Part shown: in pieces, positions 7,135 through 22,689 of the stretch
How the letters are laid out: each line of letters opens with the position of its first letter
Numbering within the stretch: position 1 is the first letter of the stretch
Source of the DNA: a virus
Virus record (IMG/VR): IMGVR_UViG_3300019487_000001
Span: 1 to 64,000 of that record
DNA length: 64,000 bases
Reading direction: 5' to 3' (one strand)
Notes under the pieces: model-generated
The model's input: the letters and a program-made list of their open reading frames with translations, nothing else
The model's database searches: none
What the model was told of the DNA's origin: nothing
Translations under genes and position numbers: made by a program

Positions 7135-7148
7135 TATAATATCTCCTA

Positions 7149-7472: not shown

Positions 7473-7509
7473 ATACGTCAGTACAACAAAACCTCAACCT
7501 TCTCTGTAC

Positions 7510-8037: not shown

Positions 8038-8112
8038 GACACGATCTCCTAATGGTTAGAGTGTCAAGGTAACAAGACGATCATAACCACTAGAGTGTCA
8101 TAGTGTCAAGTT

Positions 8113-8811
8113 TCAAATAAGACTATTAAAACGAGACTTAGGTCTACTTCTAACCTGAGCATCGTCAACCCGGAACCACCTATATATCTGCACCACCGCC
8201 GCCTCACCCAGTATCTCTACCACCTGGGCAGTGGTGAGAAAGCGGAACTTCTTTTCAGTAACCAGTTCCTGAATTTTGAGAGTTGGAGTACCAGCTACAC
8301 CCCACTTACCCTTAGCCAGATTTTGACTACTGTCGGAGTGCCACTTCATATAGTCTGAGAGTATAGGATTAGCTAGAGCAAACCCATTGGTATCAACTTT
8401 CTTGTATCCATCTACAAACGCAGCTGGAATAGGGAAAGCATATAGGTAGGCTTGAATACCCTTACTTTGGGTCTTGCTTTCGTTGTATATGAATCCGAGA
8501 GTCTTAGACTCGGAGGCTTCTTGGTTTAACCTGTCCATGTAGTTCTCGAAACTGATAACGAACTCTCTAGCAGAGAGTAACTCGTCATTAGCAAAGAACT
8601 TTTCATAGGTCACAGGTCCGAAGATATTTTTACCCATGAAGTTAGAAGCGAACTTATTAAGATCAAACTTCCAGCCTTGGGGACTACCCACGTAATGACC
8701 ATCACCATGGACCGGTTCGGGTCCAACAACGTAAGCGATCTGTTTGTTTGGATCTATGTAGTACTGAGCCTGCTTGGGATCAATCCATCTGGCTAGGGGG
8801 TCAATGAACAT
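8113..8811 (-). CDS. hypothetical protein with C-terminal RFxxL motif
   Basis: 232-aa ORF ending ..RPKSRFNSLI. Confidence 0.6.
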   Translation of the reverse strand: MFIDPLARWIDPKQAQYYIDPNKQIAYVVGPEPVHGDGHYVGSPQGWKFDLNKFASNFMGKNIFGPVTYEKFFANDELLSAREFVISFENYMDRLNQEASESKTLGFIYNESKTQSKGIQAYLYAFPIPAAFVDGYKKVDTNGFALANPILSDYMKWHSDSSQNLAKGKWGVAGTPTLKIQELVTEKKFRFLTTAQVVEILGEAAVVQIYRWFRVDDAQVRSRPKSRFNSLI

Positions 8812-8816
8812 ACTAT

Positions 8817-9332
8817 TTACCTTTGATTGGGGTTTTGTTTTGGCAAATTTTGTTTGACATTATTCGGAAACACATCTTTCAGTGTGGACTTATTATGTCC
8901 GCCAAACGGTCTATTGCCTTTGTAGTTCGGAGAGGGCTTACGATCTTTCCATTTAGGCTTAGGATAATAGGTGGGCTTACGATCTTCAGGAGCTACGTAT
9001 TCGTACCGTTGTCTTTGGACAACTGGTTTAACTTCTACTTGAATCTTATCGAGACCAAGCTTCTTAGCACAGAGCGGGCAGACTCGAATCTCTTTGGCAA
9101 TCTCCCAACCATTAGATATCTTCTTCATCATCTTAGCATTCTTGCCTCTGTTCTTAACTTCCTTCTTAATGATCTTGGTTTTGCCACCGCCGATGAAGAT
9201 CTTCTTGGTTATAATACGAGGCCGCTTGACCATATTCTCATAGGTCTTCTCCCTCTTCTCAGCGATCATAGTGATCATAGAGGTACCGGGCTTCGTAATA
9301 TATTTACAACCTACATTCTGGCACTGGTACAT
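8817..9332 (-). CDS. highly basic zinc-ribbon-like protein
   Basis: CQNVGC near the N-terminus and CPLC further on. Lys/Arg-rich throughout. The antisense plus-strand ORF 8823..9338 is judged spurious. Confidence 0.5.
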   Translation of the reverse strand: MYQCQNVGCKYITKPGTSMITMIAEKREKTYENMVKRPRIITKKIFIGGGKTKIIKKEVKNRGKNAKMMKKISNGWEIAKEIRVCPLCAKKLGLDKIQVEVKPVVQRQRYEYVAPEDRKPTYYPKPKWKDRKPSPNYKGNRPFGGHNKSTLKDVFPNNVKQNLPKQNPNQR

Positions 9333-9334
9333 GT

Positions 9335-9982
9335 TTAGAACTCGTCATCCTCCGAATCTTCTGAATCAATAGGAGGCTCAGGATGCTCCTCCTCATCTTC
9401 GTCTACGCTAACTTGCTTAGGACTTCTGACACTGACAAGATAGTCTACCAGTTCTTGTGCTGTAAATAAAGGGTCAAGTTCAATACCAGCTGCTTTTAAT
9501 GCTTCGGCTGACTGGCCCTTGCTACCATCAACGATGGCCAAGATTTTGACAATCTTAAAGTTATTACGGCGTTGCTCATTGATGAAGTTATTCTCTTGGT
9601 TACCCAGGCCAGTGAAAATGGTTGTCAGCATGGCCGCTTCGGTACCCTCGGCGCTGCCCTCACTAAAGTGAGGACACTCAAGCTCGGTACCCATCGCATG
9701 AGCAACGGTCAATAGAGAAGAAGCGAGCCAAGTGGAAGTCGGATTCTCCGGCACATCTAGCACCGTGGATGGATAGCACCTGACAGATTTTTGAAGCTTC
9801 TTATGCAAGAGCAAAGAGGTGTACCACAGGACTTCCTGTTGGTCAATGGCTTGGTCCAGAAGCTCCGGGTCTAGTTCATAGGTATCTGGAGCGTCCACCT
9901 TGGCACGAAAGATCTCTCGAGCTAGGAGGGACCTAAGAAAATTAGATAAGATTACTGCTTCATCTTTAATAACTTCGGTCAT
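9335..9982 (-). CDS. hypothetical protein with acidic C-terminal tail
   Basis: 215-aa ORF ending DSEDSEDDEF, overlapping the upstream DHH gene stop by 4 nt. Confidence 0.6.
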   Translation of the reverse strand: MTEVIKDEAVILSNFLRSLLAREIFRAKVDAPDTYELDPELLDQAIDQQEVLWYTSLLLHKKLQKSVRCYPSTVLDVPENPTSTWLASSLLTVAHAMGTELECPHFSEGSAEGTEAAMLTTIFTGLGNQENNFINEQRRNNFKIVKILAIVDGSKGQSAEALKAAGIELDPLFTAQELVDYLVSVRSPKQVSVDEDEEEHPEPPIDSEDSEDDEF

Positions 9983-10902
9983 TGGGAATCGCCTTTCTTC
10001 TTGCGGGGTTTCTTGGCTTTCTTTTCCTCTACACCAGTCTGTAGCTGTACGGTAGGCAACTCTACAGGTTTAGATGTGTCCAAAATTTTATTGGTTTGGA
10101 ACCCTGCAGCGTTCTTATGGCCACCACCCGAGCTAGCCAGGCCAGCGGCGACTAACTGTTTAGCAATGATACCTACATGCACCGCGTTAGGGTCTGTATT
10201 AAGAGACCGTAAGGACCAGATGTACTCTCCATCTTTATTGACATAGTACGTGGCACTAAACGGGTGGTGCTTAGCGAAGTGATTACCCATCTCTGACTGA
10301 TAGATCTGGGTATTAACTATAGGTATCTTGTGGGTGCCTATAAAGCCCATTACCGCACTCTTCTCCATGCGGTGGACCTGCTGCTCAACATAGCGCAATA
10401 GGATCTTCCCATCCTCTATTAGGCGCTCACAATCGATTTTATCCCACACATGGAAGTCATTAGCATATGAGTTCAGGGCATAGCCTACCTCCTCACTGAA
10501 GGGTAGTGAGAACTTCCAGAGATCTCTGTCTTGAACGTATAGGAGTAGGGGTGGAGGGGGTTCGGTAGGATGGAAATGGTTCCAGGCCAGGACGGCGCCG
10601 GACTTAGACATGTCAAAGGTGGCAAAATCTAGACCTGCCAGTTCCTTTTGAGCTGTATCATGATGATCTAATACCAGGAGGCTCTTAGCCTTCTTGTGCA
10701 TAGCTATTAGATCTTTGCGTGAATAGGAAAAGTCTACGATGTAGACTTCACGACCGGTAACATCGGGGGGAGGACTGCCGAACTTGACAGGAATGTAGTC
10801 GGCCTGATCGCCTAGCTTACGCCAGGCAGCATAAGCTGCGCCGAATCCATCGGAACACCCAGCATGGTAAAGAATCATTGGCCGTAGTGCTAATTCGGAC
10901 AT
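9979..10902 (-). CDS. DHH/DHHA1 family phosphoesterase
   Basis: DHH motif VLDHHDT, DHHA1 motif GGGHKNAAGF, N-terminal HAGCSDGFGAA. Confidence 0.8.
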   Translation of the reverse strand: MSELALRPMILYHAGCSDGFGAAYAAWRKLGDQADYIPVKFGSPPPDVTGREVYIVDFSYSRKDLIAMHKKAKSLLVLDHHDTAQKELAGLDFATFDMSKSGAVLAWNHFHPTEPPPPLLLYVQDRDLWKFSLPFSEEVGYALNSYANDFHVWDKIDCERLIEDGKILLRYVEQQVHRMEKSAVMGFIGTHKIPIVNTQIYQSEMGNHFAKHHPFSATYYVNKDGEYIWSLRSLNTDPNAVHVGIIAKQLVAAGLASSGGGHKNAAGFQTNKILDTSKPVELPTVQLQTGVEEKKAKKPRKKKGDSQ

Positions 10903-10986
10903 CCATGGAATCCTTCAACAAAATTCATCTGACAATACCAGTAAGTGACACCAGTGTCATTTCGAAGCATTGTATATCAAAACGTG

Positions 10987-11694
10987 TTACGCTGTCAAGC
11001 TTCCGAACCGGCCACCTTTTCTATCAATGTTAACCTGTTCTTTCACTTCTTCGTGTAATCTTAAGGCCTGCTCTCTAAGCGCGATGGCCTGGGCTTTGAA
11101 ATGGCTATTGATGATGACGTCTTTGCCAATCATTAGGCTGGCACTAAGTTCTTTAGCAATTTGAGTGTCAATGTCCTTGAGTAGTCTCTCTCTCGTCAAG
11201 GCATTCTCTTTCAGTTTGGCTGCTTCCAGCTGCTCAAAACTGATCTCGAGATGGCGAGCCAGTCTGTCACGGAGACCAACCACATTCTGAATGACATCGT
11301 TAACCGCAGCCGAGTTCTCGGTCACAATGTGGAAGTAGAACACTTGGACTGTAACAGAACACACCATAAGATTACGGCGACGGATCTCTTCTAGCTGACT
11401 TTCAACGAGGTCCTCGATATACTTCTTTCTGTCCCCGCTAACGACCAGACCAAAGCCTGCGTTGATACATGAGTTCTTAATAGCACGGTAGCTCCGGCTA
11501 TAGAACCGCTCGATCCACTTAGTCTCATCACGGTCCCGGAAGTGTTTAGTCTCCCGCACCACCTCGCGCTCTGGCGCAAGCTCGATCGTCTCACGTTCGA
11601 TACGCTTGGCTCTGTCAAGCTTGAAAACGGGTAACACAACGTAACAATCACTTGCTACTTTGTACTGCTGCTCTGTCGATATGGTAGTTGGCAT
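10987..11694 (-). CDS. hypothetical protein with C-terminal RFxxL motif
   Basis: 235-aa ORF ending ..RKGGRFGSLTA. Confidence 0.6.
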   Translation of the reverse strand: MPTTISTEQQYKVASDCYVVLPVFKLDRAKRIERETIELAPEREVVRETKHFRDRDETKWIERFYSRSYRAIKNSCINAGFGLVVSGDRKKYIEDLVESQLEEIRRRNLMVCSVTVQVFYFHIVTENSAAVNDVIQNVVGLRDRLARHLEISFEQLEAAKLKENALTRERLLKDIDTQIAKELSASLMIGKDVIINSHFKAQAIALREQALRLHEEVKEQVNIDRKGGRFGSLTA

Positions 11695-11702
11695 AGAACC
11701 TC

Positions 11703-12059
11703 TTATGATTTAAAGTCAATTACTTTTATACGTTCCCTTGAAAAACCTCCGGCCATCCAAGCCTCAGACTTGGTAGAACGCAAAGCTTCCTGGAGTGAAG
11801 GGATGGTACCGAGATCTTCTATGACGTGCTGCTCGGCAACATCTCTAACTGAAATAACCTTGCCATCACTATTAGTAATGGTTGTCCCGAAGGCTTGTTC
11901 ACACAGAAAGATACCGAATGAATTATGCAGTATCAATCGGTGTCTCACATCCGGCACATGAGCCTTCGTTTGATCCATCCAGTTATGGATTGGGAGATAA
12001 TCTTCCGGTTTACCTCCCAACTTTCGGGCGCTATTCTCAGCGTGATTGTAGGGCTTCAT
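11703..12059 (-). CDS. hypothetical protein
   Basis: 118-aa ORF, abuts the upstream gene. Confidence 0.55.
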   Translation of the reverse strand: MKPYNHAENSARKLGGKPEDYLPIHNWMDQTKAHVPDVRHRLILHNSFGIFLCEQAFGTTITNSDGKVISVRDVAEQHVIEDLGTIPSLQEALRSTKSEAWMAGGFSRERIKVIDFKS

Positions 12060-12551
12060 TTAGTCATGCTCACAATCTTCCGTTGATACACCATCACGAT
12101 CAACGGTTACTGCTTTATGGTCACCAAATTGCTCGTACACTACATCCTGAAGGACTTGTAATGTATTCTGAAGCTGGAGCAGTTCTTTACACATTTCCGG
12201 ATGAGACTCGATTATCTGTTCTGGAGTGAGCTTCTTACCGAACTCCTCTTCTGAGAGATTGTCATTCTCATACTCATCAGCGTGCAGTAGGGGTTCATTA
12301 TTGGGATGATCACTAACACTATAATTAATACCGTGAATTTTAACGTAGAGATATCCTACACTGAATGTGCAGGGGGATCCGTCATTAAAGTGCGGAGTAT
12401 ACTGGGTCCAATGGATATTTTGTATGAGAGGATAGCGTCTTATCAGCGTAAGAAGGGAGCGCTCGAAGATTTCCATTCCTTCGGTTATGAGCTGGTCTCT
12501 TTTGATGTTGAGCTCAGTTAAGCGCTCAACTAAACGTTCAAGCATTGACAT
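12060..12551 (-). CDS. hypothetical protein
   Basis: 163-aa ORF, stop/start-coupled on both sides. Confidence 0.6.
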   Translation of the reverse strand: MSMLERLVERLTELNIKRDQLITEGMEIFERSLLTLIRRYPLIQNIHWTQYTPHFNDGSPCTFSVGYLYVKIHGINYSVSDHPNNEPLLHADEYENDNLSEEEFGKKLTPEQIIESHPEMCKELLQLQNTLQVLQDVVYEQFGDHKAVTVDRDGVSTEDCEHD

Positions 12552-12772
12552 TAGGCTATAGTCTCATCTGCAAGGACTTCTCTTAAAGCATTAGCCAGAG
12601 TTTGTAGGCGCCACATAGAACGCTGCTTCTCGGTAAGCTTATCGTTTTCAGCTTCGAGCTCTTGACAACGATCGACTAAGTAAACAATAAACTTCTCGTC
12701 TTCACTAAGTCTTTTGTGCTGATTTTGTTTCCCCTGTAACTCTAGGACTCTCGCTATTAACTTTGGTTTCAT
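12551..12772 (-). CDS. hypothetical coiled-coil protein
   Basis: 73-aa ORF. Confidence 0.5.
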   Translation of the reverse strand: MKPKLIARVLELQGKQNQHKRLSEDEKFIVYLVDRCQELEAENDKLTEKQRSMWRLQTLANALREVLADETIA

Positions 12773-13027
12773 CTTCTATCTCCACAAATTCAATATTGTC
12801 AATTTTAATACGCGGATGCTCGTAAGTGTGCTCGCAGATGCTTCCCCCTTTGCTGGCAGGCTTCATCGCGCCACACACCTTGCACTTAGCGTAGGTTCTT
12901 TTCAGAGTATACCACGTTCCTTATAAAAGATTCCGAAAGCGATTTTTGTCAGGAAGAATCTCGGAATCAACTTCCTCTAACTCGCCGCAGAATTTTTTTC
13001 TCCATTTTGGATGCCTATAGGCTAAAC

Positions 13028-13474
13028 CTATCGCAATACTGATCTCACCCTCATTAATATGTGTCCTAACATATTTTTGCCACTACCATCGCCATTGTCG
13101 CCCCAGTAAGAATCGTTCCTGGTGTGCTCGATTAGGAATGCGTCGCCAGTTGAAAGAAGTTGTAATTGAAGTTCTGGGTGTTGCATAAACTTAGCTAAAA
13201 CAGCTCGGTACATAATACCATTCTTTACTTCTTCCCAATCCTGGCGTAAACCTCTCGTGGGGTCACGTCCCATTTGTGCCGCCATTTTCGGAGAGTTAAC
13301 GGCACGAATCAATTCCTTATAACTCTCATCCTTGAACTTTTGTGCCTGAAAGTAGTGCTCGCTGGTTGGCCAAACAACACCGTCTATTGTAACTGGATAA
13401 GAAGCAAAGTTAGAAAAGCATCCGAAAGGGTCTTTAACTCGATAGAATTTTATGCTTTTCATATAATACCACAC
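13028..13474 (-). CDS. NADAR (YbiA/DUF1768) family ADP-ribose-processing enzyme
   Basis: FYRVKDPFGCFSNF, WPTSEHYFQAQKF and NDSYWGDNGDGSGKNMLG match the NADAR signature. GTG at 13474 abuts the upstream stop; an alternative ATG lies at 13462. Confidence 0.8.
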   Translation of the reverse strand: MWYYMKSIKFYRVKDPFGCFSNFASYPVTIDGVVWPTSEHYFQAQKFKDESYKELIRAVNSPKMAAQMGRDPTRGLRQDWEEVKNGIMYRAVLAKFMQHPELQLQLLSTGDAFLIEHTRNDSYWGDNGDGSGKNMLGHILMRVRSVLR

Positions 13475-14578
13475 TCAAGCCGGTAAAACCAGTTCGTCAA
13501 TGACGGGTGTTCCGTGCCATAGTCTTAGCTGGCCGTGCCATACTGCACCGGGTTCATCTTTTTTTCGCATCAATATATAATTCAACTGACGCCTCGTGCC
13601 AATACTCTCCGTATATAAGGATACTATACTACACCACGTACCGGAGTTAAAGTATTCACCCAGGTCCGGGATCCTCTTATAGCCAGCCTTATGGTTATGC
13701 GCCAGAACTACCAGGCCCTCGCTCTTGGCCTCTATAGCCTCACTCATCTCACGGAGAATCATTTCGGCCCTACCCTCGAGGGTGGACTGTCCTACGCTCT
13801 TTCTGAGAATGGAGTACGTCGGACGAAACTTTGACTTGACCGACATGTTCTTATTGAAGAGAGCGTTGTAGATTACAAACCATGAGATCTTTAAGCCTAG
13901 ACCGGTAAGCCAGATGGGCTTAGAGAAGAGAGTTCGGAAGATCCAGGCAGGTATAGGGCGAACGACATCTAAGTAGGGACAGTCTTGTTTGACGGGATTT
14001 AATAGGTGAGTGATCCAGTAGTATCCCCATGGTGCATCTATAATCTGGGCTGCATTTTCTTCATCCACATGCCAGAGCGATTCACCCTGTTGCCCGTGTT
14101 CTATGTGAAAGTTATCTCCGATGTAGCGAAACTTGTTATACTCAGTATACCGTTCAGGATCTATCTCCAGGAGCTTGGTAAAGAAATACCTATGTGCTTC
14201 TGCGAGAGCGAGACCCATGTCATGGTTGCCCACGATGTAACGGAACTTATGCTTTGGATTCTTAAGCCACTTAGCGATAAACTTGAAAAGTCCCAAGTGG
14301 CCACGATATACTTTGTCGAGCTGGGCAATGACGAAGGCTGCCTCGAGCTTATCAGGGAAGCCACCATCGACTGGGACCTGGAGTAGATCTAGGAAGTCAC
14401 CGTTAGCTACAAACTCAACCTCATCAGCACCAATCTTATCGGCATCATATGTAGTTAGGAGTTCGACGAGTTTGCCGTCTCGAGTGAAGTTCTCTAGAGA
14501 ATTGAGTTGGCCATTCTCGAGATAGACACCCTCCCCGATGTGGGTGTCAGAGATAACAACCTTAAAGCTTTCTCCCAT
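13475..14578 (-). CDS. calcineurin-like metallophosphoesterase
   Basis: Motifs ISDTHIG (DxH), ANGDFLD (GD), GNHDMG (GNHD), and later EHGQ and AHNH histidines. Start overlaps the RT stop by 17 nt. Confidence 0.8.
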   Translation of the reverse strand: MGESFKVVISDTHIGEGVYLENGQLNSLENFTRDGKLVELLTTYDADKIGADEVEFVANGDFLDLLQVPVDGGFPDKLEAAFVIAQLDKVYRGHLGLFKFIAKWLKNPKHKFRYIVGNHDMGLALAEAHRYFFTKLLEIDPERYTEYNKFRYIGDNFHIEHGQQGESLWHVDEENAAQIIDAPWGYYWITHLLNPVKQDCPYLDVVRPIPAWIFRTLFSKPIWLTGLGLKISWFVIYNALFNKNMSVKSKFRPTYSILRKSVGQSTLEGRAEMILREMSEAIEAKSEGLVVLAHNHKAGYKRIPDLGEYFNSGTWCSIVSLYTESIGTRRQLNYILMRKKDEPGAVWHGQLRLWHGTPVIDELVLPA

Positions 14579-15551
14579 AGTCTTTATCCACCAAAGAGTT
14601 ATAGCTCTTAATCAATTTAACATACTGAGCCATATTTATATGTCGAACCCAAGACAACTTCCCTAGGATATGCTCATCGAGATGCTTCCTATCTTTGGCG
14701 AAGTGAAACAGCTGGCCCTCTATGTGCTCACAATACCTCTTAGTGAGAGCGAGAGTCCCATCATTATAGACTATAAACTTATTGGAAATCAGTAAACGAT
14801 TCTCATTACGGACAACAAGCTGAGACTTTTTATAATTAAGTTGCATGTAACCTAGAGTGTTCAGGATCTCTTCGACATGCTCCAGGATGTTTACAAAGAA
14901 TTCTTTGGCATGGATTCTATCTCCACGACCAGAGAAAAGGATGTCATCTGCGTACCGTGTATATGAATTACTTTTGATCGAGCTTAGTGGACCGGTCCTA
15001 TTCATCATTAGGGCTTGGCCTAGGTGTTGCATCGCCGTATCAAAGCTTTTTAATACAAGGTTAGACAAGAGCGGTGAACTGGGGGCGCCTTGCGGTAAGC
15101 CGCCTTCAAAGGTACACAGCTCTGCTATGTCACGCAGGAATTTATTGTGGTATCCAGGCGAACGCGGAATGCGGCGGTCGACTTCTTCTTTCAAGTTAAC
15201 TCTGAGTGCCTCTGTTATCAATAGAGGATGACAGGAGGGAAAGAAGTCCTTGATATCAAGGGCTACAACAAAGTCCGCTTTAGCATGGGCTTGGAGATGA
15301 GATTTAAGACCACGCCCGGGAATATAGGCACAGGCACCAGGTGGATACTCAATATATCTACCATTTAGATTGGTAACTATGAACTCTTGAAGTTCACGTA
15401 GAGCTCCCAGCGGTTCACAGATCATGCGCTTCTTGCCATTGGGCTTGGGAATATATCGTATATGATACATCCCACGCTTGTTTGCTATGATATCGGGTAT
15501 GGCAAAGCCCATCGAGTTAGAAAACTCGTAAAACTTAGAGGCATAAAGCAT
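14562..15551 (-). CDS. reverse transcriptase, stand-alone retron/Abi-like
   Basis: RT motifs IPKPNGKKRMICEP, LDIKDFFPS, LPQGAPSSPLLSN, YTRYADDILFSG (YADD codons 14943-14954). 329 aa with no fused domain. Confidence 0.9.
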   Translation of the reverse strand: MLYASKFYEFSNSMGFAIPDIIANKRGMYHIRYIPKPNGKKRMICEPLGALRELQEFIVTNLNGRYIEYPPGACAYIPGRGLKSHLQAHAKADFVVALDIKDFFPSCHPLLITEALRVNLKEEVDRRIPRSPGYHNKFLRDIAELCTFEGGLPQGAPSSPLLSNLVLKSFDTAMQHLGQALMMNRTGPLSSIKSNSYTRYADDILFSGRGDRIHAKEFFVNILEHVEEILNTLGYMQLNYKKSQLVVRNENRLLISNKFIVYNDGTLALTKRYCEHIEGQLFHFAKDRKHLDEHILGKLSWVRHINMAQYVKLIKSYNSLVDKDYGRKL

Positions 15552-15569
15552 CCAGGAGATCCCTTATAA

Positions 15570-15815
15570 TTACTTAGCGGGTCGAGGGGAAGGCTTCTGA
15601 GAGCGCTGAACGTTCTTGGCTTGGGGCTTTGTGTTACCATTAACGGTGGCCTCAACCAATTCGAATTCAACTTCCTCGTTCATCTTCAGAGTCTTGAACT
15701 CATTCTCTTCACTTTGAATCTCGGCGAAGTGGACAAAAATATCAGCTTCCACTCCCTCAGCTAGAATAAATCCAAAACCCTTCTTCGCATCAAACCATTT
15801 AACTTTACCCTTCAT
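15570..15815 (-). CDS. cold-shock domain protein (CspA family)
   Basis: [16 protein letters not shown] (RNP1-like) and DIFVHF (RNP2-like). Ends 18 nt upstream of the RT start. Confidence 0.9.
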
Positions 15816-15868
15816 AAAAATTAAACTCTCCTTTAATTCTTCCTCCCCGATCTGAAGTTCCCCTCTAG

Positions 15869-16198
15869 TTAGAAGGGCTCTTTGCCAAACTCGGCTGCTG
15901 CGGAAGTAGTCTTTTTGGCCACCGGGGCCGGAGAGGATCCCTGCTCTTTCCAGGCCGCGAAGCTCTGGATCACACGATCGTTGATATTAGCGAGCAAGTC
16001 TTTGTCAGTGACGAACACCTGGTTGTACCACTTGGTATCCTTGCCCTGGCTCCGTGGGAACGAGAGGAAAGGACCGTTGGTACCGTCATTGACGGTGCAA
16101 TGGACTTCTAACACATCATTAAAGGTAACAGTAACACCTGCGAGAATCTTGCCTGCGGTAACAGAACGAAACTTAAGATTAGTAACTTCGATCGACAT
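15869..16198 (-). CDS. spoVG: SpoVG-family nucleic-acid-binding protein
   Basis: [43 protein letters not shown] parallels B. subtilis SpoVG [40 protein letters not shown]. Confidence 0.7.
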
Positions 16199-16231
16199 AA
16201 AACCTCCGTGTTTAATTTGTTCCTAATAGGA

Positions 16232-16276
16232 TATACGAATAAGCGTATAAAACCATTTTATACGATCTTGCGTATA
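16232..16276. promoter_or_regulatory. two identical palindromic operator-like sites TATACG-N6-CGTATA
   Basis: Sites at 16232-16249 and 16259-16276, centres 27 bp apart. One overlaps the spacer/-10 of the predicted promoter; the other covers the expected transcription start. Confidence 0.45.
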
Positions 16277-16283
16277 TTTTCAA
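16255..16283 (-). promoter_or_regulatory. sigma70-like promoter for the spoVG-csp-RT operon
   Basis: Minus strand reads TTGAAA-17 nt-TAAAAT. An RBS GGAGG precedes the spoVG ATG about 50 nt downstream. Confidence 0.45.
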
Positions 16284-16540
16284 TCTAAATTCTCCGGTAA
16301 CCAAGCGCTCCTAGGGGTCCGTTTACTCTGGAAACTCTTTCTCGCGGGCCTCTTATGCCAAATAGCTAGGATGACTCCCACGAGCGATATCACGTTCGCC
16401 AATACCTGCAACGTCCTTATGATTCTGCCCATGCTCGATTCTCATTTTTCTTTTTCGCTTAAGTGTGGTGTTATCTATTTTATACTTTCTTTTATAACTT
16501 CAATCTACAACTCTTGCGGAGCAAGGGGCGTAGACCGGGG

Positions 16541-16957
16541 CTACAAATCTAGGTTACTAAACCTTCCCTTGGCTTTGTTCTTTCTGGTCTTCCTAAACGG
16601 TTTGGGCTTATGTTTATTAAGCCTTACTTCGTAGCGTTCTGTGTGAGCCCTAACCGTAGCCTTGATCATCTGATCTCTCTCTTTGCCAGTAAGGTTCTTG
16701 ACATCAGCTCTATTGGTAACGTGGAGGATAGCTTTCCAATCTATGCAACGATGAACCCTATTAGCAGTAGAAGGGTTATACTCATGAAACTTCCTGCACG
16801 CTAACATTTCCTGATGAACAAGTTGCTGTATCTTGGGGCAAAACCAAGCCACGTCCTCGTCACTATAGACCAAAGCTTGTGGCCTAAAGATACAGTTACC
16901 ACAGAGTCTGGGGATACGTATGATCTTATTGTTCGACTCGGTTTTACTATTAGACAC
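16541..16957 (-). CDS. Cys-containing hypothetical protein with C-terminal RFxxL motif
   Basis: 138-aa ORF ending ..KAKGRFSNLDL. Confidence 0.55.
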   Translation of the reverse strand: MSNSKTESNNKIIRIPRLCGNCIFRPQALVYSDEDVAWFCPKIQQLVHQEMLACRKFHEYNPSTANRVHRCIDWKAILHVTNRADVKNLTGKERDQMIKATVRAHTERYEVRLNKHKPKPFRKTRKNKAKGRFSNLDL

Positions 16958-16965
16958 AGCTCACC

Positions 16966-17196
16966 CTATACAGGAGAAATTTTATAGCTTAGACTAAGCC
17001 CGACCAAATCCTCAAGCTCTAAAAATATAGCTCCAACTTCTTCTGGCGATTCCGTGTTAATCTCTGCTGTGCATTTCTCTGAGTTGACAACCGCATTCAA
17101 CCTGTTGCCTAGGTAATAGCACAACTCACCGTGTAGTCCCTCACCTATGGCTCTGCCGCCTCTGCGCTTCCAGGACAAAACAACCTTGTAACTCAT
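16966..17196 (-). CDS. hypothetical protein
   Basis: 76-aa ORF preceded by GGAGGA. Confidence 0.45.
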   Translation of the reverse strand: MSYKVVLSWKRRGGRAIGEGLHGELCYYLGNRLNAVVNSEKCTAEINTESPEEVGAIFLELEDLVGLSLSYKISPV

Positions 17197-17282
17197 CGGT
17201 TCCTCCTAAATAACTACACGACGGTCACACATCGGTGACCACCGGTAGGAAACTTATTCAGTTGTAAAACCGATAATTTCGT

Positions 17283-17358
17283 CCTGGCAGGGATTCGAAC
17301 CCCACTCCTCCCTCAAGCACATAGCTCAGAAGCTATGCCTCTTTGGGGACTGCACCAT
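17283..17358 (-). ncRNA. tRNA-like element (T-arm plus one hairpin), not a canonical tRNA
   Basis: Minus strand has UGGGG-UUCGAAU-CCCUG, whose G.U pairs would be C.A mismatches on the plus strand. A 6-bp hairpin catagc/gctatg lies upstream. No acceptor stem can be closed, and the hairpin loop is 6 nt. Confidence 0.25.
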
Positions 17359-17466
17359 ACAACACAGGTCGTTGTTATATTGCTCTATCCAAGGCAGTAT
17401 AACCTAAAACAATTCCAAATACAAGCTTATCTAGTAGCTTTGCCACAATGCAGTACCAAGCGCTTC

Positions 17467-17529
17467 CTAGTAGTTCCAGGTCGGTTTCGGTTTGGGCTTC
17501 GGCTTGGTCTTCTTTTTCTTCTTGGCCAT
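17467..17529 (-). CDS. 20-aa highly basic peptide MAKKKKKTKPKPKPKPTWNY
   Basis: AGGAGG lies 5 nt upstream of the ATG. The peptide sits between the UDG gene and the tRNA-like element. Confidence 0.3.
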   Translation of the reverse strand: MAKKKKKTKPKPKPKPTWNY

Positions 17530-17564
17530 TGGATCCTCCTAGTTCTATATATATTTAATATATA

Positions 17565-18128
17565 TTAAGAATGCTTAAGGAATTCAAGTACTTGCTTAAG
17601 ATCTTTCCACACAAGCTTCTTGGCATCGGGATTCCTTAAAAGGTAAGCCGGGTGATACGTGTATGTAACAGGCCACGTAGCATAATAACTGAGGCTGCCA
17701 CGTTGCTTAGAGATTTTGAAGTCGTTAGGTTCATTGAACCGGCGCCCCGCCGTGGCGCCAAGGGCGATAATAATCTTCGGGTTGACCAGCTGAATCTGTT
17801 CATCCAAATAGCGACGACAAGCTGCAATCTCTATAGGATCTGGCACCCTATTCTCAGGGGGTCGACATTTAACTACGTTGGTGATATAAACCTGATCACG
17901 TTGATAACCCATGGCTTCGATCATCTTGGTTAATAGATCACCGGCCCGACCTACGAATGGCAGACCTTGTTGATCTTCATTGTAACCGGGACCCTCACCA
18001 ACAAACATGATGTCAGGATTTATAGGACCAGTTCCAAAGACAGTATTCCTGCGCGTCTCGCATAGTATACAGTTGCGACACTTGCTTACAGTGCGGGCTA
18101 GCTCGATTAGCGATTGTTCCGCGTTCAT
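17565..18128 (-). CDS. udg: uracil-DNA glycosylase, family 4
   Basis: CRNCILC Fe-S cysteines, GEGPG, FVGRAG, VKCRPPENR, HPAYLLRNP. Confidence 0.9.
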   Translation of the reverse strand: MNAEQSLIELARTVSKCRNCILCETRRNTVFGTGPINPDIMFVGEGPGYNEDQQGLPFVGRAGDLLTKMIEAMGYQRDQVYITNVVKCRPPENRVPDPIEIAACRRYLDEQIQLVNPKIIIALGATAGRRFNEPNDFKISKQRGSLSYYATWPVTYTYHPAYLLRNPDAKKLVWKDLKQVLEFLKHS

Positions 18129-18604
18129 TACGGTACTAACTTATCGAAGCGACTGACCGCTTCTTCTTCCTTAGGACTAGTTGCTTTTGTAACCATATCA
18201 TGAACCATATTTGCATCGAGTCTATGCCCACAGCGGGCACAGTTAAAGAGAGAGAAAATTCTGGTAAAAACTGACACTTGTTTTAAGAATTCATTCAGAG
18301 TATCTAGATGTTTACGGGCATCAGATTCATTCAGATTGTTTTGCTTAATACCTTCTGTAGTACATCGAATCATTTCGTGCACCTGTGAAATTCGTGGATT
18401 GGTATTAAGTTTCTCTTGTAAAGTATCCAGTACAATCATTAGGTTAACATAATGACTTATGCGACCTGCAGTACTAGCATTAACCTCTTTTTGGGCACGA
18501 GCCATGTGTGATCCAATGAACCTGCGAGCTTCGGCAAGCTGGTAAAGACTATTCTTTATATAACTCTCCCAATCAAAGAGAGGCATATTAGGATCTACAG
18601 CCAT
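18128..18604 (-). CDS. hypothetical protein with C-terminal RFxxL motif
   Basis: 158-aa ORF ending ..AVSRFDKLVP. Confidence 0.55.
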   Translation of the reverse strand: MAVDPNMPLFDWESYIKNSLYQLAEARRFIGSHMARAQKEVNASTAGRISHYVNLMIVLDTLQEKLNTNPRISQVHEMIRCTTEGIKQNNLNESDARKHLDTLNEFLKQVSVFTRIFSLFNCARCGHRLDANMVHDMVTKATSPKEEEAVSRFDKLVP

Positions 18605-18610
18605 AATTAA

Positions 18611-19108
18611 TTACCTCGCCTTAGGACCCCAAATATCTACTGGTGGATTAGAATCAAAAAGTTGCTCACCAACTCCCACAATCTGGATCTCGTCAGAAAC
18701 ACCTGGCTCAAACTCGATTTCAACTATGCCAGGCGTTAACTCCTCGATCTGCTGCAAGCTCACCGCCTTGCGAGGTGCCACAGGCGCATTAGGAGGAAGC
18801 TGAGGTCGCATGAACAGACGTAGACGGTGGATCTCTTCTAGATGTTGTCGCATCTTGAAGAGCTCTTGAGATAAGACCTTACACATCTGCAAGATCAGCT
18901 CTCTGCCTCGGATATCCCCAGCCGGGACGTGATTCTTCTTGCCTTTGAGAAGGCCGAACATCTTCCGGGGAGGTTCTTGCTGAGTATGAGCGTCCAGGAT
19001 GGTAGTGACTCGTTCCATTGAATACTCGAGGAACTTCAAGTCGCTCAAGTTATTGTCGTCAATGAACGAGAGGTTAAGTTTTACTTCGGACAGGGGGTTT
19101 GTAAACAT
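18611..19108 (-). CDS. hypothetical protein
   Basis: 165-aa ORF. Confidence 0.55.
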   Translation of the reverse strand: MFTNPLSEVKLNLSFIDDNNLSDLKFLEYSMERVTTILDAHTQQEPPRKMFGLLKGKKNHVPAGDIRGRELILQMCKVLSQELFKMRQHLEEIHRLRLFMRPQLPPNAPVAPRKAVSLQQIEELTPGIVEIEFEPGVSDEIQIVGVGEQLFDSNPPVDIWGPKAR

Positions 19109-19114
19109 GTCTTC

Positions 19115-19483
19115 TTACTCCGTGAGGGTTAACGTAAAATAATCCCAATTAAGATCTGATTCTTTATATTTAACTACGTGCTTTTTGTAGAACTTTGGAA
19201 TGAACGGTATGGGAACGGGGATCTCAATCCAACCAGAGAGTTCTACTCCCGGCTGCATGAACTTGCTATCAATGCTGTTACGTTTGAGACGCACTATGTA
19301 TTGATTGCCATCGTTAACGGCGCGATACATAGCTATTGTATCTTCAAGCTTGCCCTCTTCCCCGCGAATATCCAGTCTACCTACTAATCTGAATCCTAGC
19401 GGTGCAGAGTTATCAAGACTCCAAGCTTGCCCGATGGCAAAGCCGAGAACAAAGATGCAGACAATAGATAAAAATTTCTTCAT
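19115..19483 (-). CDS. secreted hypothetical protein
   Basis: N-terminal signal peptide MKKFLSIVCIFVLGFAIGQA. Confidence 0.55.
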   Translation of the reverse strand: MKKFLSIVCIFVLGFAIGQAWSLDNSAPLGFRLVGRLDIRGEEGKLEDTIAMYRAVNDGNQYIVRLKRNSIDSKFMQPGVELSGWIEIPVPIPFIPKFYKKHVVKYKESDLNWDYFTLTLTE

Positions 19484-19686
19484 GATTTTATTCTGTTTTT
19501 AATTTCTGTGTCAACAATGTCTTTTTGTTTTCCCACTGAAGTCAACTCATTATACGTATCCCAGTCCATCTTTTTATCTAGTTCGTCCATCCGTCTACCT
19601 AGTGAGGCTCCTGAGTCACGGAGCTCGGAGTCATTCATGCTTTCCGCTGACGTCTTGGTTATCTCTTTCGTTATGTTCCCGCTCAT
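19480..19686 (-). CDS. hypothetical protein
   Basis: 68-aa ORF. The 5' end overlaps the upstream gene, so the start is uncertain. Confidence 0.4.
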   Translation of the reverse strand: MSGNITKEITKTSAESMNDSELRDSGASLGRRMDELDKKMDWDTYNELTSVGKQKDIVDTEIKNRIKS

Positions 19687-20533
19687 AAGTCTGCCACTCC
19701 TCTATGATTGTATGGTAATGTGATGTACCTAAAACTGCTGCACCGGCCTGTAACATCTCCTGGGCAATTGCAAAAGATGATATACCTCCTGCAGCTTTGA
19801 CAATTACTCGACCTTGACTTTCTTGAAAAGCTAAGTTAGCAATGAACTCAACGTCAACTGGCCTAGTCTTACCATTGACTCCCGTTGCAGTCTTGATTGT
19901 CAATATCTCCGGTATGCTAGCTAGACCAGTAACGAGCTCATGGAAATATGGATCACTATCTCTATCAAAGTGGGCAACCTCTATGATGGGAGTAACAACT
20001 CCGATCTTATTGGACCACTCAAGGCGAGACAGGATTTTAGAGAGTTCTATGACTGTACCGGTTCTAGTAAATTTATCTGCTGGATTCACAACGACATCGC
20101 AAATGTCTGCGCCCTGCTCGAGGGCGGTCTGAATTGCAATAGTCTTGGCATCAATAGAGTCCCAGCCATTTGGAAAGCTAACTACTGTTTTAATTAGAAA
20201 TCGAGCTTCATACGGCAGATTATCTCTCGGAAACTTTAAGCGTAGAGTTCTCATGTCTTCTCTGTACTTAAAGGCGCGTCTTACCATGTGAGGTGGTATA
20301 ACAACTGAGTTGAAGTCATGCAGATAAGCTGCATCACACAGGAACGTGACTTCTTCTAGGATCATATCGTGCTTCAAATTCGTAGCATCAATGCGCCTAT
20401 TGAACGGTGCGTTCATAAAGCCACGGACATGTCCCTCGGGCCATGTGGGATCAGATTTATACGGCTCTTGTGATTCGTTTTCACGAAGATGACCAAGTAG
20501 AAAGGCTTCGGGGCTTAATCGAGCATCATTCAT
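19631..20533 (-). CDS. DeoC/class-I aldolase family protein
   Basis: IKTATGVNG (compare KTSTGF) and VKAAGGISSFAIAQEMLQAGAAVLGTS (compare VKASGGIR..A..M..AGA.RIGTS). Confidence 0.6.
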   Translation of the reverse strand: MNDARLSPEAFLLGHLRENESQEPYKSDPTWPEGHVRGFMNAPFNRRIDATNLKHDMILEEVTFLCDAAYLHDFNSVVIPPHMVRRAFKYREDMRTLRLKFPRDNLPYEARFLIKTVVSFPNGWDSIDAKTIAIQTALEQGADICDVVVNPADKFTRTGTVIELSKILSRLEWSNKIGVVTPIIEVAHFDRDSDPYFHELVTGLASIPEILTIKTATGVNGKTRPVDVEFIANLAFQESQGRVIVKAAGGISSFAIAQEMLQAGAAVLGTSHYHTIIEEWQTYEREHNERDNQDVSGKHE

Positions 20534-20587
20534 ACTAACCTCGCAATAATCCTCTTACCCGCCCCTTGTCTAAACCACAAGGGCGAT

Positions 20588-21631
20588 CTAAGAATTAGCG
20601 CAAACATTAGGATTTTGAATCGCAAAACGATTCCAGACAGTTTGGTATTTATCGTCCTTTTTAGCATACTCGCCTATCTCCTCAAGAGTAACACTCGCCG
20701 TCCCGTGCTTCTTACAGACGAGACCTGCGGCAATATTGGATAACATAAAAGCTTCTTTATCCTGCATTCCTCGACATAAAAAGTATGCAAAGGCAGCGGT
20801 GACTGTGTCACCGGCACCCGTAACGTCAACTACTTCATTAAAGATAGCTGATAAACCCATCTCTGCACAAATGCGTGGTCTTACTTCCGGATCAGGTTCG
20901 CCTTGCATATTTTTGCGTTCAAATATACAAAACTTCATTCCAGCTTCGGACTCAGTACGAAGTATACCACGCTCAGGTCTGAAGCCAGACTCTTCTATGG
21001 CGAGGAACTCTTTGAGGTTGGGAGTTATATAATCGATGCCCGAGAAGATCCAAGGATCTTTAACACGACGTGTGTCAGCGATGGTTAAAATACCACGCTC
21101 TCTGGCCTCTTCAATCAAGGGTTGGATGTTATCACAATTGAGAGTTTTCTTGTTGTAATCAGAGAAGATAATCGCATCTAGCACAAGGGAGCCATCGGCA
21201 AACTGTTCGAGCATATTGGCAATATCGTAGGGTTGTTTGTCTTGCAATGACAAGTGCTCATTGTCTATGCGAATCATCTGTTGCTGGTAGGTAGAATCTA
21301 TATAGCGAAGCTTGATATTATTGCGTTTGGACGGAGGATCAACTATGAATTCTCTACGGACGATATCAGAATGACCAAGCACCTGTTTCATTTCGACGGT
21401 ACCATAACCAGCCAAGATAACCTGAGCACCTAATGCAACAAGATTTGTTGCAACATTAGCGGCGCCGCCAGCTACATCTCTAGTGGAATGGATCTCAAAG
21501 ACAGGGACCGGCGCCTCGGGAGAAATCTTGGTTACTTTCCCGTAAATATACCGATCGATCATAAGATCGCCGATGACAAGTACTACCGGTTTATTGTTTT
21601 CCATCCTAATTAAATCCCTAAAAATCTCCAC
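20588..21631 (-). CDS. hldA: PfkB-family sugar kinase resembling HldE/RfaE domain I (heptose-7-phosphate kinase)
   Basis: VLVIGDLMIDRYIYGKVTKISPEAPVPVF, AGGAANVATNLVALG, DVTGAGDTVTAAF. Confidence 0.8.
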   Translation of the reverse strand: MEIFRDLIRMENNKPVVLVIGDLMIDRYIYGKVTKISPEAPVPVFEIHSTRDVAGGAANVATNLVALGAQVILAGYGTVEMKQVLGHSDIVRREFIVDPPSKRNNIKLRYIDSTYQQQMIRIDNEHLSLQDKQPYDIANMLEQFADGSLVLDAIIFSDYNKKTLNCDNIQPLIEEARERGILTIADTRRVKDPWIFSGIDYITPNLKEFLAIEESGFRPERGILRTESEAGMKFCIFERKNMQGEPDPEVRPRICAEMGLSAIFNEVVDVTGAGDTVTAAFAYFLCRGMQDKEAFMLSNIAAGLVCKKHGTASVTLEEIGEYAKKDDKYQTVWNRFAIQNPNVCANS

Positions 21632-21812
21632 ATAATTCGGTCCACCAGTATGCGTATTTACCTCTGGTAATACAACCGCTCTTGTCTACACGGTGCTGAT
21701 CTAGGAAAAGTTTTTCAGCTTCTTGGTAAGAGGCCGCTTCGACTATCAATCTAAGCTGCATTGAGCCCGGATTATCGGGATATTCGTATATCTTGAATAT
21801 AAAAGAACTCAT
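21618..21812 (-). CDS. hypothetical protein
   Basis: 64-aa ORF. Confidence 0.45.
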   Translation of the reverse strand: MSSFIFKIYEYPDNPGSMQLRLIVEAASYQEAEKLFLDQHRVDKSGCITRGKYAYWWTELCGDF

Positions 21813-21830
21813 AAAGCCTTAGCTATACGG

Positions 21831-22037: not shown

Positions 22038-22039
22038 AT

Positions 22040-22680: not shown

Positions 22681-22689
22681 TTCATAGGT

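Follow-up and report, generated by a model that had tools for sequence, protein, structure and literature searches.

A retron-clade reverse transcriptase in a SpoVG-like, cold-shock, metallophosphoesterase and NADAR gene array of a large tailed phage

Analysis of the window, i.e. the whole stretch of 64,000 nucleotides under study, revealed five genes, all on the minus strand, in the order SpoVG-like, cold-shock-domain protein (Csp), reverse transcriptase (RT), metallophosphoesterase (MPE) and NADAR, so that the ORFs and gene identities given in a preliminary description were recovered. PHROG matches and the contig, of at least 194.6 kb, indicated that the genome carrying the array is that of a large tailed phage. 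The array starts with the SpoVG-like gene (15869-16198; 109 aa), followed by the genes for Csp (15570-15815; 81 aa, basic in its C-terminal tail), the RT (14562-15551; 329 aa), the MPE (13475-14578; 367 aa) and the NADAR protein (13028-13474). The spacings were as previously claimed: the Csp stop and the RT ATG are separated by 18 nt, the RT and MPE genes overlap by 17 nt, and the longest NADAR ORF, of 148 aa from a GTG, abuts the MPE stop. A likelier start for the latter is the ATG 12 nt further on, at 13462, which would give a protein of probably 144 aa, as in the gene call of L002. The single upstream promoter that had been proposed corresponds to a predicted sequence TTGAAA-17 nt-TAAAAT (16255-16283, minus strand) ahead of the SpoVG-like gene, which is promoter-like only, such sites not being enriched in this region (10 found versus 8.8 expected from shuffles); it is overlapped by an inverted repeat with 22-nt arms (16231-16277).

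Conservation of the neighbourhood was checked in the sole known relative, a second phage lineage (L001), and the comparison of the array thus rests on two lineages. The SpoVG-CSD-RT-MPE order is the same as far as the L001 contig reaches, and the 17-nt overlap, the 18-nt spacer and the position of the promoter-like sequence (TTGATT-17-TATAGT in L001) are all kept. Since the two lineages are syntenic across the whole region, all neighbouring genes included, co-conservation of the array is uninformative on function.

The RT ORF matched Pfam RVT_1 (E=4.9e-19) and contains the motifs IPKPNGKKRMICEP, LDIKDFFPS, LPQGAPSSPLLSN and YTRYADDILFSG. The RTs of the window and L001 are 64% identical; YADD, QGAPSSP and DIKDFFPS are intact in both, and dN/dS is about 0.10 with dS saturated. 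As judged from these sequences, the RT is catalytically intact and under purifying selection. All its PDB sequence matches were retron RTs, the best being Ec86/Eco1, Ec78/Eco7, Ec83 and Kva2 (E 1e-16 to 1e-14), and the 12 top Foldseek matches of the AF2 model (pLDDT 86) were likewise retron RTs, these same four giving the best fold match over the full length including the thumb (TM 0.6-0.69), while a DGR RT ranked 49th. The phage RT shares with retron RTs a size of about 310-330 aa without a fused domain, the YADD and QGxPxSP motifs and the H of NAxxH.

Against curated models, however, the RT scored 150 bits on the retron family model (cut-off 235), and its best PADLOC match was RT_III-A with 152.6 bits. 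Bona fide retron RTs reach about 400 bits with the model of their own type and 170-290 bits with those of other types; on every retron-type model the phage RT falls below what ordinary retron RTs obtain on non-cognate types. No other 50% cluster of this kind exists among 1.84 billion representatives. HMM scores, PDB sequence matches and the predicted fold place the RT in the retron clade, yet as an extreme outlier within it. The preliminary view of the enzyme as retron-like rather than DGR-like, without a fused domain or adjacent room for an msr/msd, held, and the RT could indeed be assigned to no retron, DRT or Abi type. The labels 'group-II-like' and 'Abi-like' did not stand: the group II model gave only 60 bits (Drt2 and Drt3a 33 bits each), all far below cut-offs, no group II intron RNA, maturase domain or endonuclease domain was found with the RT, and every leading match, by sequence or by fold, was to a retron RT. 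Repeats of the DGR TR/VR type were not found within 9 kb on either side, even with 8-nt seeds.

Alignment confirmed that the retron VTG position, described earlier as LISNKF, is occupied by ISN followed by a two-residue insertion (KF). All the nearest homologs of the RT keep the G of this motif and nearly all read (V/I)TG; according to the literature, VTG contributes to the placement of the priming G and to recognition of the msr. The NAxxH motif reads HLQAH, with the H kept and the N and A lost. The RT is preceded by just 18 nt, whereas the nearest homologs have 190-600 nt, which is room for an msr/msd. No conserved structure was found at the Csp/RT junction when the window was compared with L001, nor was a contiguous ncRNA or a conserved a1/a2 repeat for the RT; a conserved a1/a2 closing duplex of the retron type was absent from all candidate RNAs, and an Rfam search was negative even at E<=5. 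In contrast to the retron RTs named above, this RT sits in a large, apparently virulent-type phage genome and not in a bacterial defence island or prophage. Retron-type RTs are also annotated in the very large lytic genomes of the Staphylococcus jumbo phages PALS_2, S6 and vB_StaM_SA1 and are about 28% identical to the phage RT over about two thirds of the protein, but they are about 500 aa long, are preceded by a gap of roughly 1.2 kb and have different neighbours, with no CSD, SpoVG, MPE or NADAR gene.

The Csp matched Pfam CSD (E=1.9e-23), with RNP1 (KGFGFI) and RNP2 (IFVHF) intact and a pN of 0.10 versus L001. Its best NCBIfam match was CspE-type (67.7 bits), while it reached 31.3 bits on the effector model of retron Se72 (cut-off 82) and 34.3 bits on PADLOC CSD_V; from its sequence it looks like a generic CspE/CspD type rather than a Se72-type effector. 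Type V retrons (Retron-Sen1/Se72) consist of an RT and a cold-shock-domain protein of 67-86 aa, and the phage locus, with a retron-clade RT directly beside a small CSD protein, has this gene architecture, so that this part of the five-gene combination, which the earlier description could place in no known type, has a precedent. Both the RT and the CSD protein nevertheless fail the tests for type V membership, and the 25 best PADLOC matches of the RT include no type V RT model. The phage order also differs: CSD precedes RT without an intervening ncRNA, and SpoVG, MPE and NADAR genes are added. The precedent of type V retrons for pairing an RT with a small CSD protein, together with the intact RNP1 and RNP2, was counted in favour of the reading proposed below. 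The SpoVG-like protein matched Pfam SpoVG (E=4.2e-8; 33.7 bits, cut-off 29.6) and is 80% identical to that of L001 (dN/dS 0.10). SpoVG-like genes are very rare in phages (1/50,697 phage records), and the position of this one next to RT and Csp is thus unlikely to be routine.

The 367-aa ORF had no Pfam match of its own; its homologs carry PF00149, and the motifs D11xH13, G60D61, G117NHD120, H161 and H294xH296 are all invariant. The AF2 model (pLDDT 76.8, pTM 0.83) matched PolD-DP1, purple acid phosphatase, LpxH and Mre11 with a Foldseek probability of 1.0, although TM was only 0.3-0.5. Catalytic motifs and predicted fold together indicate that this protein, which is 85% identical to its L001 counterpart, is a metallophosphoesterase. 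A hydrophobic helical insertion (about aa 184-281) lies between the catalytic motifs, as in LpxH-type calcineurin-like pyrophosphatases, and several homologs are named 'LpxH' by JGI; the phage protein is nevertheless longer (367 versus about 240 aa), its TM to LpxH is only about 0.3-0.5, and no sequence-level match to a solved LpxH was found. Homologs of about 30% identity occur in bacteria, where they are chromosomal neighbours of PGI and have no RT in their vicinity.

The NADAR protein matched Pfam NADAR (E=3.6e-39), phrog_1017 and, weakly, Pfam Phage_30_3, its best-scoring model being the YbiA-like NCBIfam TIGR02464 (142.8 bits, cut-off 73.7). It resembles gp30.3/AdfN of the lytic phage T4, a stand-alone anti-DarT1 NADAR of about 145 aa. 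AdfN is an orphan, necessary and sufficient against DarTG1, and has no RT association. By this analogy the NADAR gene is most simply taken as an independent counter-defence gene of the anti-DarT type. Given this known stand-alone role and MPE homologs without an RT neighbour, a functional unity of all five genes can be put forward only as a hypothesis.

Of the three non-coding candidates named previously, two failed: the stretch 16290-16540 is not empty, as it contains a conserved hairpin and part of a conserved 50-aa membrane-type ORF (16280-16432), and 12773-13027 showed no significant fold (z = -0.8). The tRNA-like element placed at 17283-17358 is real and conserved, but it is no tRNA by default ARAGORN or Rfam; ARAGORN reports it only once the threshold is relaxed. 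It is a candidate anticodon-less cloverleaf (17280-17371, minus strand) with an acceptor stem CGACCUG/CAGGACG, a small arm at the D position, a tetraloop-capped long arm and a canonical T-arm GGGGUUCGAAUCCC; the closing stem is followed by a G, and CCA is not encoded. A 102-nt block (17355-17254), which spans the larger part of the cloverleaf and runs into a downstream hairpin, is 87% identical to L001 against a background of saturated synonymous sites. When folded without constraints, the sequences of both lineages gave the same four-way junction, with one covarying pair (G:C to C:G) at the base of the T-arm. The conserved candidate hairpin (17198-17273, minus strand) follows directly; its outer stem is invariant, its inner stem differs between lineages yet still pairs and scores as terminator-like (17244-17219), and the ribosome-binding site of a 76-aa gene lies in its 3' arm. 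Upstream of the tRNA-like RNA is a predicted promoter-like sequence TTGTAT-17 nt-TATACT (17396-17424, minus strand), whose -35 is invariant; the window and L014 have TATACT as the -10, and L001 has TATCCT. In both lineages this RNA forms a separate transcription unit 1.7 kb upstream of the RT, and a search of the window found no complementary site elsewhere and nothing tying it to the RT. The presence at this distance of a structured RNA that is under strong constraint and has a promoter of its own was counted as favourable to the proposal that follows.

We tentatively propose that the large phage has kept a retron-derived RT which makes cDNA or ssDNA in a noncanonical manner with Csp and SpoVG and acts in conflict, a reading to which we give somewhat less than even weight. 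One promoter would drive the RT together with two small single-strand nucleic-acid binders, SpoVG-like and Csp; the RT gene would be translationally coupled to the LpxH-like MPE, with the orphan NADAR next. A structured phage RNA, not contiguous with the RT gene, would be copied into short cDNA or ssDNA, and Csp and/or SpoVG would bind either this template or the resulting ssDNA, a part presumed to be played in type V retrons by the CSD partner. Priming is probably altered, because VTG, which helps to position the 2'-OH priming guanosine in retrons, has been replaced. The module would serve in conflicts of the phage with its host or with other phages, and the MPE may be a coupled effector, a processing enzyme or a mere neighbour.

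Somewhat unlikely, in our estimation, is that the five are separate accessory or counter-defence genes, packed as tightly as everywhere else in this phage, the RT acting alone, NADAR reversing DNA ADP-ribosylation, Csp and SpoVG modulating phage RNA generally, and the MPE hydrolysing some substrate that is a nucleotide or is linked to lipid. The entire window is indeed a dense, co-oriented array, and the unspecific synteny, the bacterial MPE homologs beside PGI, the self-sufficient AdfN and the CspE/CspD-type Csp all fit; but the kept overlap and spacer imply coupled expression, RT plus CSD recurs as a bona fide retron architecture, and the rare SpoVG-like gene stands beside RT and Csp.

We regard as improbable a canonical tripartite retron for superinfection exclusion, in which branched msDNA from a missed msr/msd would restrain a toxic effector, either the MPE or, as in type V, Csp, until perturbed by a competing phage. 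In some retrons, such as Retron-Sen2, the effector can lie between ncRNA and RT. The retron-clade RT, its translational coupling to an effector-like MPE with an intact active site and hydrophobic insertion, and the cloverleaf closing stem followed by G, which recalls the a1/a2 plus priming G topology, are consistent with such a system. Against it, the RT has lost the glycine of VTG, which is the residue most conserved in that motif, the RNA searches were negative, the RT scores fall below the family cut-off and cross-type values, and an MPE effector occurs in no known retron type.

It is very unlikely that the anticodon-less RNA, once matured and supplied with CCA by the CCA-adding enzyme of the phage, provides the RT with a primer or initiation site, even though a phage tRNA nucleotidyltransferase is encoded at 30409-31764 (phrog_2244, E=7.9e-69), the cloverleaf has a conserved canonical T-loop and acceptor stem, and VTG loss suggests changed priming. 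The window has no primer-binding-site-like complement of the cloverleaf 3' end, a single complementary stretch nearby lacks conservation in L001, the cloverleaf belongs to a different transcription unit, 1.7 kb from the RT, and phage tRNA-like elements can be plain processing or decoy elements.

Assignment to another RT class (DGR, group II intron, Abi/DRT), for which the RVT_1 domain common to all classes could speak, or to a decaying, inactive RT gene is effectively refuted by the repeat, RNA, score and fold tests above and by selection, as the catalytic motifs are intact at a dN/dS of about 0.1.

The preliminary description, made from the sequence alone, had claimed five closely packed genes. 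All five are present where it had placed them, and all lie on the minus strand: a SpoVG-like gene (15869-16198; Pfam SpoVG 33.7 bits, cut-off 29.6), a gene for an 81-aa cold-shock-domain (CSD) protein, Csp (15570-15815; CSD E=1.9e-23), the gene for a 329-aa reverse transcriptase, RT (14562-15551; RVT_1 E=4.9e-19), a 367-aa ORF for a metallophosphoesterase, MPE (13475-14578; identified from homologs with PF00149, motifs and fold) and a NADAR gene (13028-13474; E=3.6e-39; PF08719 135.1 bits, cut-off 35.1; NCBIfam TIGR02464 142.8 bits, cut-off 73.7). The spacings were also right, the Csp stop lying 18 nt before the RT start and the RT and MPE genes overlapping by 17 nt. Abutment of the MPE stop on the NADAR gene holds for the longest NADAR ORF; an ATG 12 nt farther into it is the more probable start, and is the one called in another retrieved sequence (L002). 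As to the promoter placed upstream of the array, a promoter-like TTGAAA-17-TAAAAT does occur at 16283-16255, such matches are not enriched over shuffled sequences, and this one is supported only by a comparable site at the corresponding position of L001, the sole other lineage retrieved. An inverted repeat with 22-nt arms (16231-16277, minus strand) overlaps the SpoVG promoter at its -10 box and, since the inverted repeat at the equivalent position of L001 is a different and shorter one, may be an operator.

Comparison of the RT with PADLOC models indicated that the best 25 of 69 matches were all retron RT models, with III-A and II-A at the top, and the ten best PDB sequence matches were all retron or retron-family RTs, including Kva2 (a type IX retron), Ec86, Ec78 and Ec83. 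Foldseek with the confident predicted model (pLDDT 86.3) gave retron RTs as its best 12 matches, full length and with TM 0.6-0.69, and ranked group II intron, DRT2, DRT9 and DGR RTs below them. By sequence and by predicted fold the RT belongs to the retron clade. The earlier label "retron/Abi-like" thus keeps its first half, on HMM, PDB and fold comparisons, and loses its second; an Abi/DRT class was rejected, as the RT scored 33.2 bits on Drt2 (cut-off 390) and 32.7 bits on Drt3a (cut-off 200). The motifs YADD, QGAPSSP and DIKDFFPS are intact in the RTs of the window and of L001, and dN/dS between the two is about 0.10 with synonymous sites saturated; from these sequences the RT looks active and is under purifying selection.

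Within the retron clade the RT is an outlier. In an exhaustive HMMER search of 1.84 billion cluster representatives only the RT's own cluster (651 bits) fell below 1e-30, the next-best protein reaching 116 bits, and a word-indexed search of 5.8 billion sequences returned the window's protein and one 60%-identical relative only. The best retron-type PADLOC score was 152.6 bits for the RT and 163.5 bits for the L001 RT, to be read against the approximately 400 bits that ordinary retron RTs reach on their own type and the 170-290 bits that they reach on non-cognate types; on NCBIfam retron_St85_RT the RT scored 150.1 bits, under the curated cut-off of 235. Classification against prokaryotic RT models agreed with the preliminary description, which could place an RT with such partners in no retron, DRT or Abi type: the protein falls in the retron clade with no type assignable, its scores lying below curated and cross-type levels.

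VTG (region Y) and NAXXH (region X) are the defining retron RT motifs of the literature, the G in VTG and the H in NAXXH being the most conserved residues, and VTG helps to place the priming guanosine and to recognise the msr. Alignment revealed that the VTG position reads L-I-S-N-K-F in both the window and L001, that is, ISN followed by a two-residue insertion, whereas the nearest homologs all retain the VTG glycine and nearly all have (V/I)TG. The NAXXH position reads S-H-L-Q-A-H in the window and E-H-L-K-A-H in L001, the H being kept and the N and A lost. The nearest homologs have 190-600 nt of non-coding sequence upstream of the RT, compared with the 18 nt found here, and with the overlapping MPE gene downstream there is no space beside the RT for an msr/msd, as had been pointed out. 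The RT is a retron-clade enzyme that genuinely defies classification.

The data show the gene identities, an intact active site, purifying selection, the loss of VTG and the lack of an ncRNA beside the RT. Product, template, partners and role of the RT module are what we infer from these data, and the reading that we put first, still tentatively, is a retron-derived cDNA-making module repurposed by the phage, with a non-contiguous template, altered priming and a role in conflict. The RT would copy a structured RNA not contiguous with its gene, its priming being altered, Csp and/or SpoVG would bind the template or the product, and the module would act in phage-host or phage-phage conflict. Retrons are bacterial anti-phage systems as well as genome-engineering tools, and they are defined by an RT with VTG and NAxxH, by an msr/msd RNA contiguous with it and by an effector. 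In this large phage purifying selection maintains a retron-clade RT that departs from two of these traits, in an array with partners that none of the 13 retron types has; that a phage of this size should keep a VTG-less retron RT lacking a contiguous RNA would surprise a specialist. If the RT makes a product, it would be an example of retron RT rewiring, with another template location and probably another priming, and of a lytic-type phage using reverse transcription against its hosts or rival phages. With two sequences to be found in about 15 billion proteins this lineage is extremely rare, and computational progress on the mechanism is limited because no more than these two exist.

The five genes might instead be independent neighbours in a densely packed accessory region, which we regard as possible if rather doubtful. 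L001 shares the SpoVG-CSD-RT-MPE order, the overlap of 17 nt and the position of the promoter, so that the neighbourhood is conserved where it could be compared. Since the window and L001 are syntenic across the whole compared stretch and the searches found no third lineage, this conservation is not specifically informative, and the five genes are not established as a single system. T4 gp30.3/AdfN, an orphan NADAR of a lytic phage, strips DarT1 ADP-ribosylation, for which it is necessary and sufficient, and works alone; the best model for the window's NADAR is YbiA-like, so that an activity of this sort is putative for it. Homologs of the MPE, about 30% identical, lie on bacterial chromosomes beside PGI and with no RT nearby, and phage records contained no detectable homolog. 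In favour of a single system are the pairing of an RT with a small CSD protein, which type V retrons also have, and the great rarity of SpoVG-like genes in phages (one of 50,697 records).

The 367-aa protein itself gave no Pfam, PHROG, PADLOC or NCBIfam match and no sequence relative in the PDB. Its homologs have PF00149, the calcineurin-type motifs are all invariant in a 13-sequence alignment (D11, H13, G60, D61, G117-N-H-D120, H161, H294 and H296), and its AlphaFold model (pLDDT 76.8, pTM 0.83) matched many MPEs in Foldseek, with metallophosphoesterase folds at probability 1.0; its earlier naming as a calcineurin-like phosphoesterase is supported on all three counts. The MPE fits no subfamily well (TM 0.3-0.5) and, like LpxH, has its catalytic motifs separated by a helical insertion. 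The idea of a Dbr1-like enzyme that debranches the 2'-5' linkages of msDNA was also considered and rejected, there being no Dbr1 among the 50 Foldseek matches listed and no specific subfamily supported.

A canonical tripartite retron in which the MPE or Csp would be the effector, and which would serve superinfection exclusion, is unlikely. The architecture that defines type V retrons (Se72) is an RT with a small CSD protein of 67-86 aa alongside, and the earlier view that the locus had no known counterpart needs correcting to this extent, the RT-CSD pair having a precedent. The locus is type V-like in its 81-aa CSD protein encoded just upstream of the RT, but Csp scored only 31.3 bits on the Se72 effector model NF038236 (cut-off 82), it did better on the CspE (67.7 bits) and CspD (64.6 bits) models, and no type V RT model was among the best 25 of 69 PADLOC matches of the RT; by model scores the locus fails type V membership. 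A literature search returned no paper joining retrons with a metallophosphoesterase, SpoVG or NADAR partner. The tripartite reading is weakened by the VTG loss and by the missing msr/msd. An ncRNA contiguous with the RT, bearing a priming G and a terminal inverted repeat (a1/a2), was not found, and Rfam searches were negative for the whole window at the gathering threshold and for 12500-17700 at E<=5. The Csp/RT junction has no conserved structure, an 8-bp pairing there being absent from L001, and synonymous-site conservation in the RT rises only weakly, at codons 5-25.

Three stretches had been proposed as candidate non-coding RNA, and one of them, the tRNA-like element (17371-17280), is real and conserved in L001. 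The stretch 12773-13027 folds no better than shuffled sequences (z = -0.8), and 16290-16540 consists mostly of a conserved hydrophobic ORF of 50 aa, with a conserved hairpin before it and the promoter-like site of the array after it. This small ORF (16280-16432, minus strand; MGRIIRTLQVLANVISLVGVILAIWHK...), located in an apparent intergenic gap, encodes a protein 60% identical to that of L001 with dN/dS of about 0.09, and judged by this conservation is probably a real small membrane protein gene. The nested hairpin TCTAC..CTTGC-tcc-GCAAG..GTAGA (16504-16534, minus strand) is conserved, follows the gene for a 138-aa protein and is terminator-like. The Staphylococcus jumbo phages vB_StaM_SA1 and PALS_2 have an unannotated gap of about 1.2 kb before each RT of about 500 aa and retron type (L007 2178-3376 and L008 2205-3481 in our retrieved sequences), and these gaps might hold the RNA partner of those RTs. 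As analogues of the present locus the jumbo-phage loci were rejected, their architecture being different.

The block 17355-17254, between the gene for a family-4 uracil-DNA glycosylase (UDG) and the gene for a 76-aa protein, has 87% identity with its counterpart in L001. Since every flanking gene is saturated at synonymous sites (pS 0.62-0.87), the nucleotide sequence of the block is itself constrained. The element delimited there (17280-17371, minus strand) is an anticodon-less tRNA-like cloverleaf that is conserved and folds alike in the two lineages, unconstrained folding giving one and the same four-way junction in both. Its acceptor-type stem, CGACCUG/CAGG(A/G)CG, has 6/7 pairs, its small D-position arm is the exact place of a 65-nt extra hairpin in L001, and its T-arm carries the canonical loop GGUUCGAAUCC and one covarying pair at the arm base. 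The long arm ends in a 4-nt loop (tetraloop), so that there is no anticodon, and no CCA is encoded. ARAGORN called no tRNA at 17371-17280 with default settings and 'tRNA-?(ct)' at the relaxed 70% threshold. A conserved promoter-like site (17396-17424, minus strand) belongs to the cloverleaf, which is followed by a conserved 76-nt hairpin with a terminator-like score (17198-17273, minus strand) that includes, and sequesters, the ribosome-binding site of the next gene. An anticodon-less tRNA mimic is of interest in its own right for phage RNA biology.

Nothing ties this cloverleaf to the RT. The two are 1.7 kb apart and belong to different transcription units, a duplex search around the cloverleaf gave no conserved closing duplex of the a1/a2 type, and the window has no complement of the cloverleaf's 3' end resembling a retrovirus-style primer-binding site. 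The sole nearby complement, inverted repeat I6, is not conserved in L001. The cloverleaf may serve as a processing signal, may act as a decoy for tRNA-targeting defences or may be a partner of the RT. The window encodes a tRNA nucleotidyltransferase, that is, a CCA-adding enzyme (30409-31764, minus strand; phrog_2244 E=7.9e-69), and ARAGORN found no tRNA genes in the 64 kb; the CCA-less mimic is possibly a substrate of this enzyme. A fuller version of the phage-borne retron derivative, in which a tRNA-mimic-based RT, Csp/SpoVG chaperones and the MPE form a counter-defence or exclusion device that has no described equivalent, is very unlikely. There the VTG-less RT would no longer prime from the 2'-OH of a contiguous msr; the separately transcribed mimic, first matured and CCA-tailed by the phage's own CCA-adding enzyme, would serve as primer or template, Csp and SpoVG would be ssDNA/RNA chaperones, and the translationally coupled MPE would be a processing enzyme or effector. 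Reverse transcription dependent on the tRNA mimic, taken by itself as an alternative, is highly improbable.

Directly after the UDG gene lies a conserved micro-ORF of 20 aa, rich in lysine and proline and provided with a good ribosome-binding site (17467-17529, minus strand; MAKKKKKTKPKPKPKPTWNY in the window and MAKKKKKKNKPKPKPKPTWNY in L001), and just past it the window has a 36-nt insertion duplicating CTACTAG. Two conserved genes, 16541-16957 and 16966-17196 (both minus strand), separate the tRNA-like RNA from the RT operon and encode proteins of 138 aa and 76 aa, respectively, with no family match; the 138-aa protein has a CxxC...C...C spacing and a very basic C-terminus, by which it is possibly a zinc-binding nucleic-acid binder.

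That the RT is of another class or a dead gene is scarcely credible, being rejected by the Rfam, NCBIfam, repeat-search, dN/dS and Foldseek results. For a DGR, no direct repeats of at least 40 nt occur in 6000-24000 (8-nt seeds) and none relevant in the whole window, and a DGR RT came 49th in the Foldseek ranking. For a group II intron, there was no Rfam match, TIGR04416 gave 60 bits against a cut-off of 300, and a 329-aa RT is too short for X or En domains.

The exact RT sequence was found on a contig of 194,631 bp. A megablast search of 50,697 phage records with the locus gave no match, tblastn of the RT gave only matches of at most 32% identity, and when IMG/VR, genomes and metagenomes were scanned for RT peptides or for RNA-element patterns no true relative was among the matches listed, the metagenome RNA-element pattern being too generic (it matched tRNA T-loops). 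A UDG-anchored search returned the window and L001/L014 only, L014 being L001 with 2 SNPs. The only viral match in the peptide and pattern scans was L134 (IMG/VR UViG_3300031992_000072, 80 kb), whose RT is 25% identical and has an unrelated gene context. This retron-like RT of 383 aa (in the stretch 6810-12707) is flanked by a protein of the ThiF family and by one of 976 aa that contains an RNA-dependent RNA polymerase domain of cellular type (PF05183, E=6.9e-14), a pairing of RT and RdRP that is unusual on a viral contig.

The window is a long co-oriented phage gene array in which PHROG models identified a tail-fibre-like protein, a DNA polymerase exonuclease subunit, a tRNA nucleotidyltransferase, a DHH phosphoesterase and a transaldolase. 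Nearby genes with nucleic-acid and accessory functions are numerous (17565-18128, 11703-12059, 9979-10902, 6365-6844 and 44352-45014, minus strand), namely the UDG, about 57% identical to bacterial UDGs, DUF6915, the DHH phosphoesterase, a Whirly-domain ssDNA-binding protein and the transaldolase, which is of the type carried as an auxiliary metabolic gene. A 35-nt motif with a GC-rich hairpin (GCTCC...GGAGC) is present in three copies, at 24034-24068, 32050-32084 and 51528-51562, probably as a terminator or regulatory site that the phage repeats between genes.
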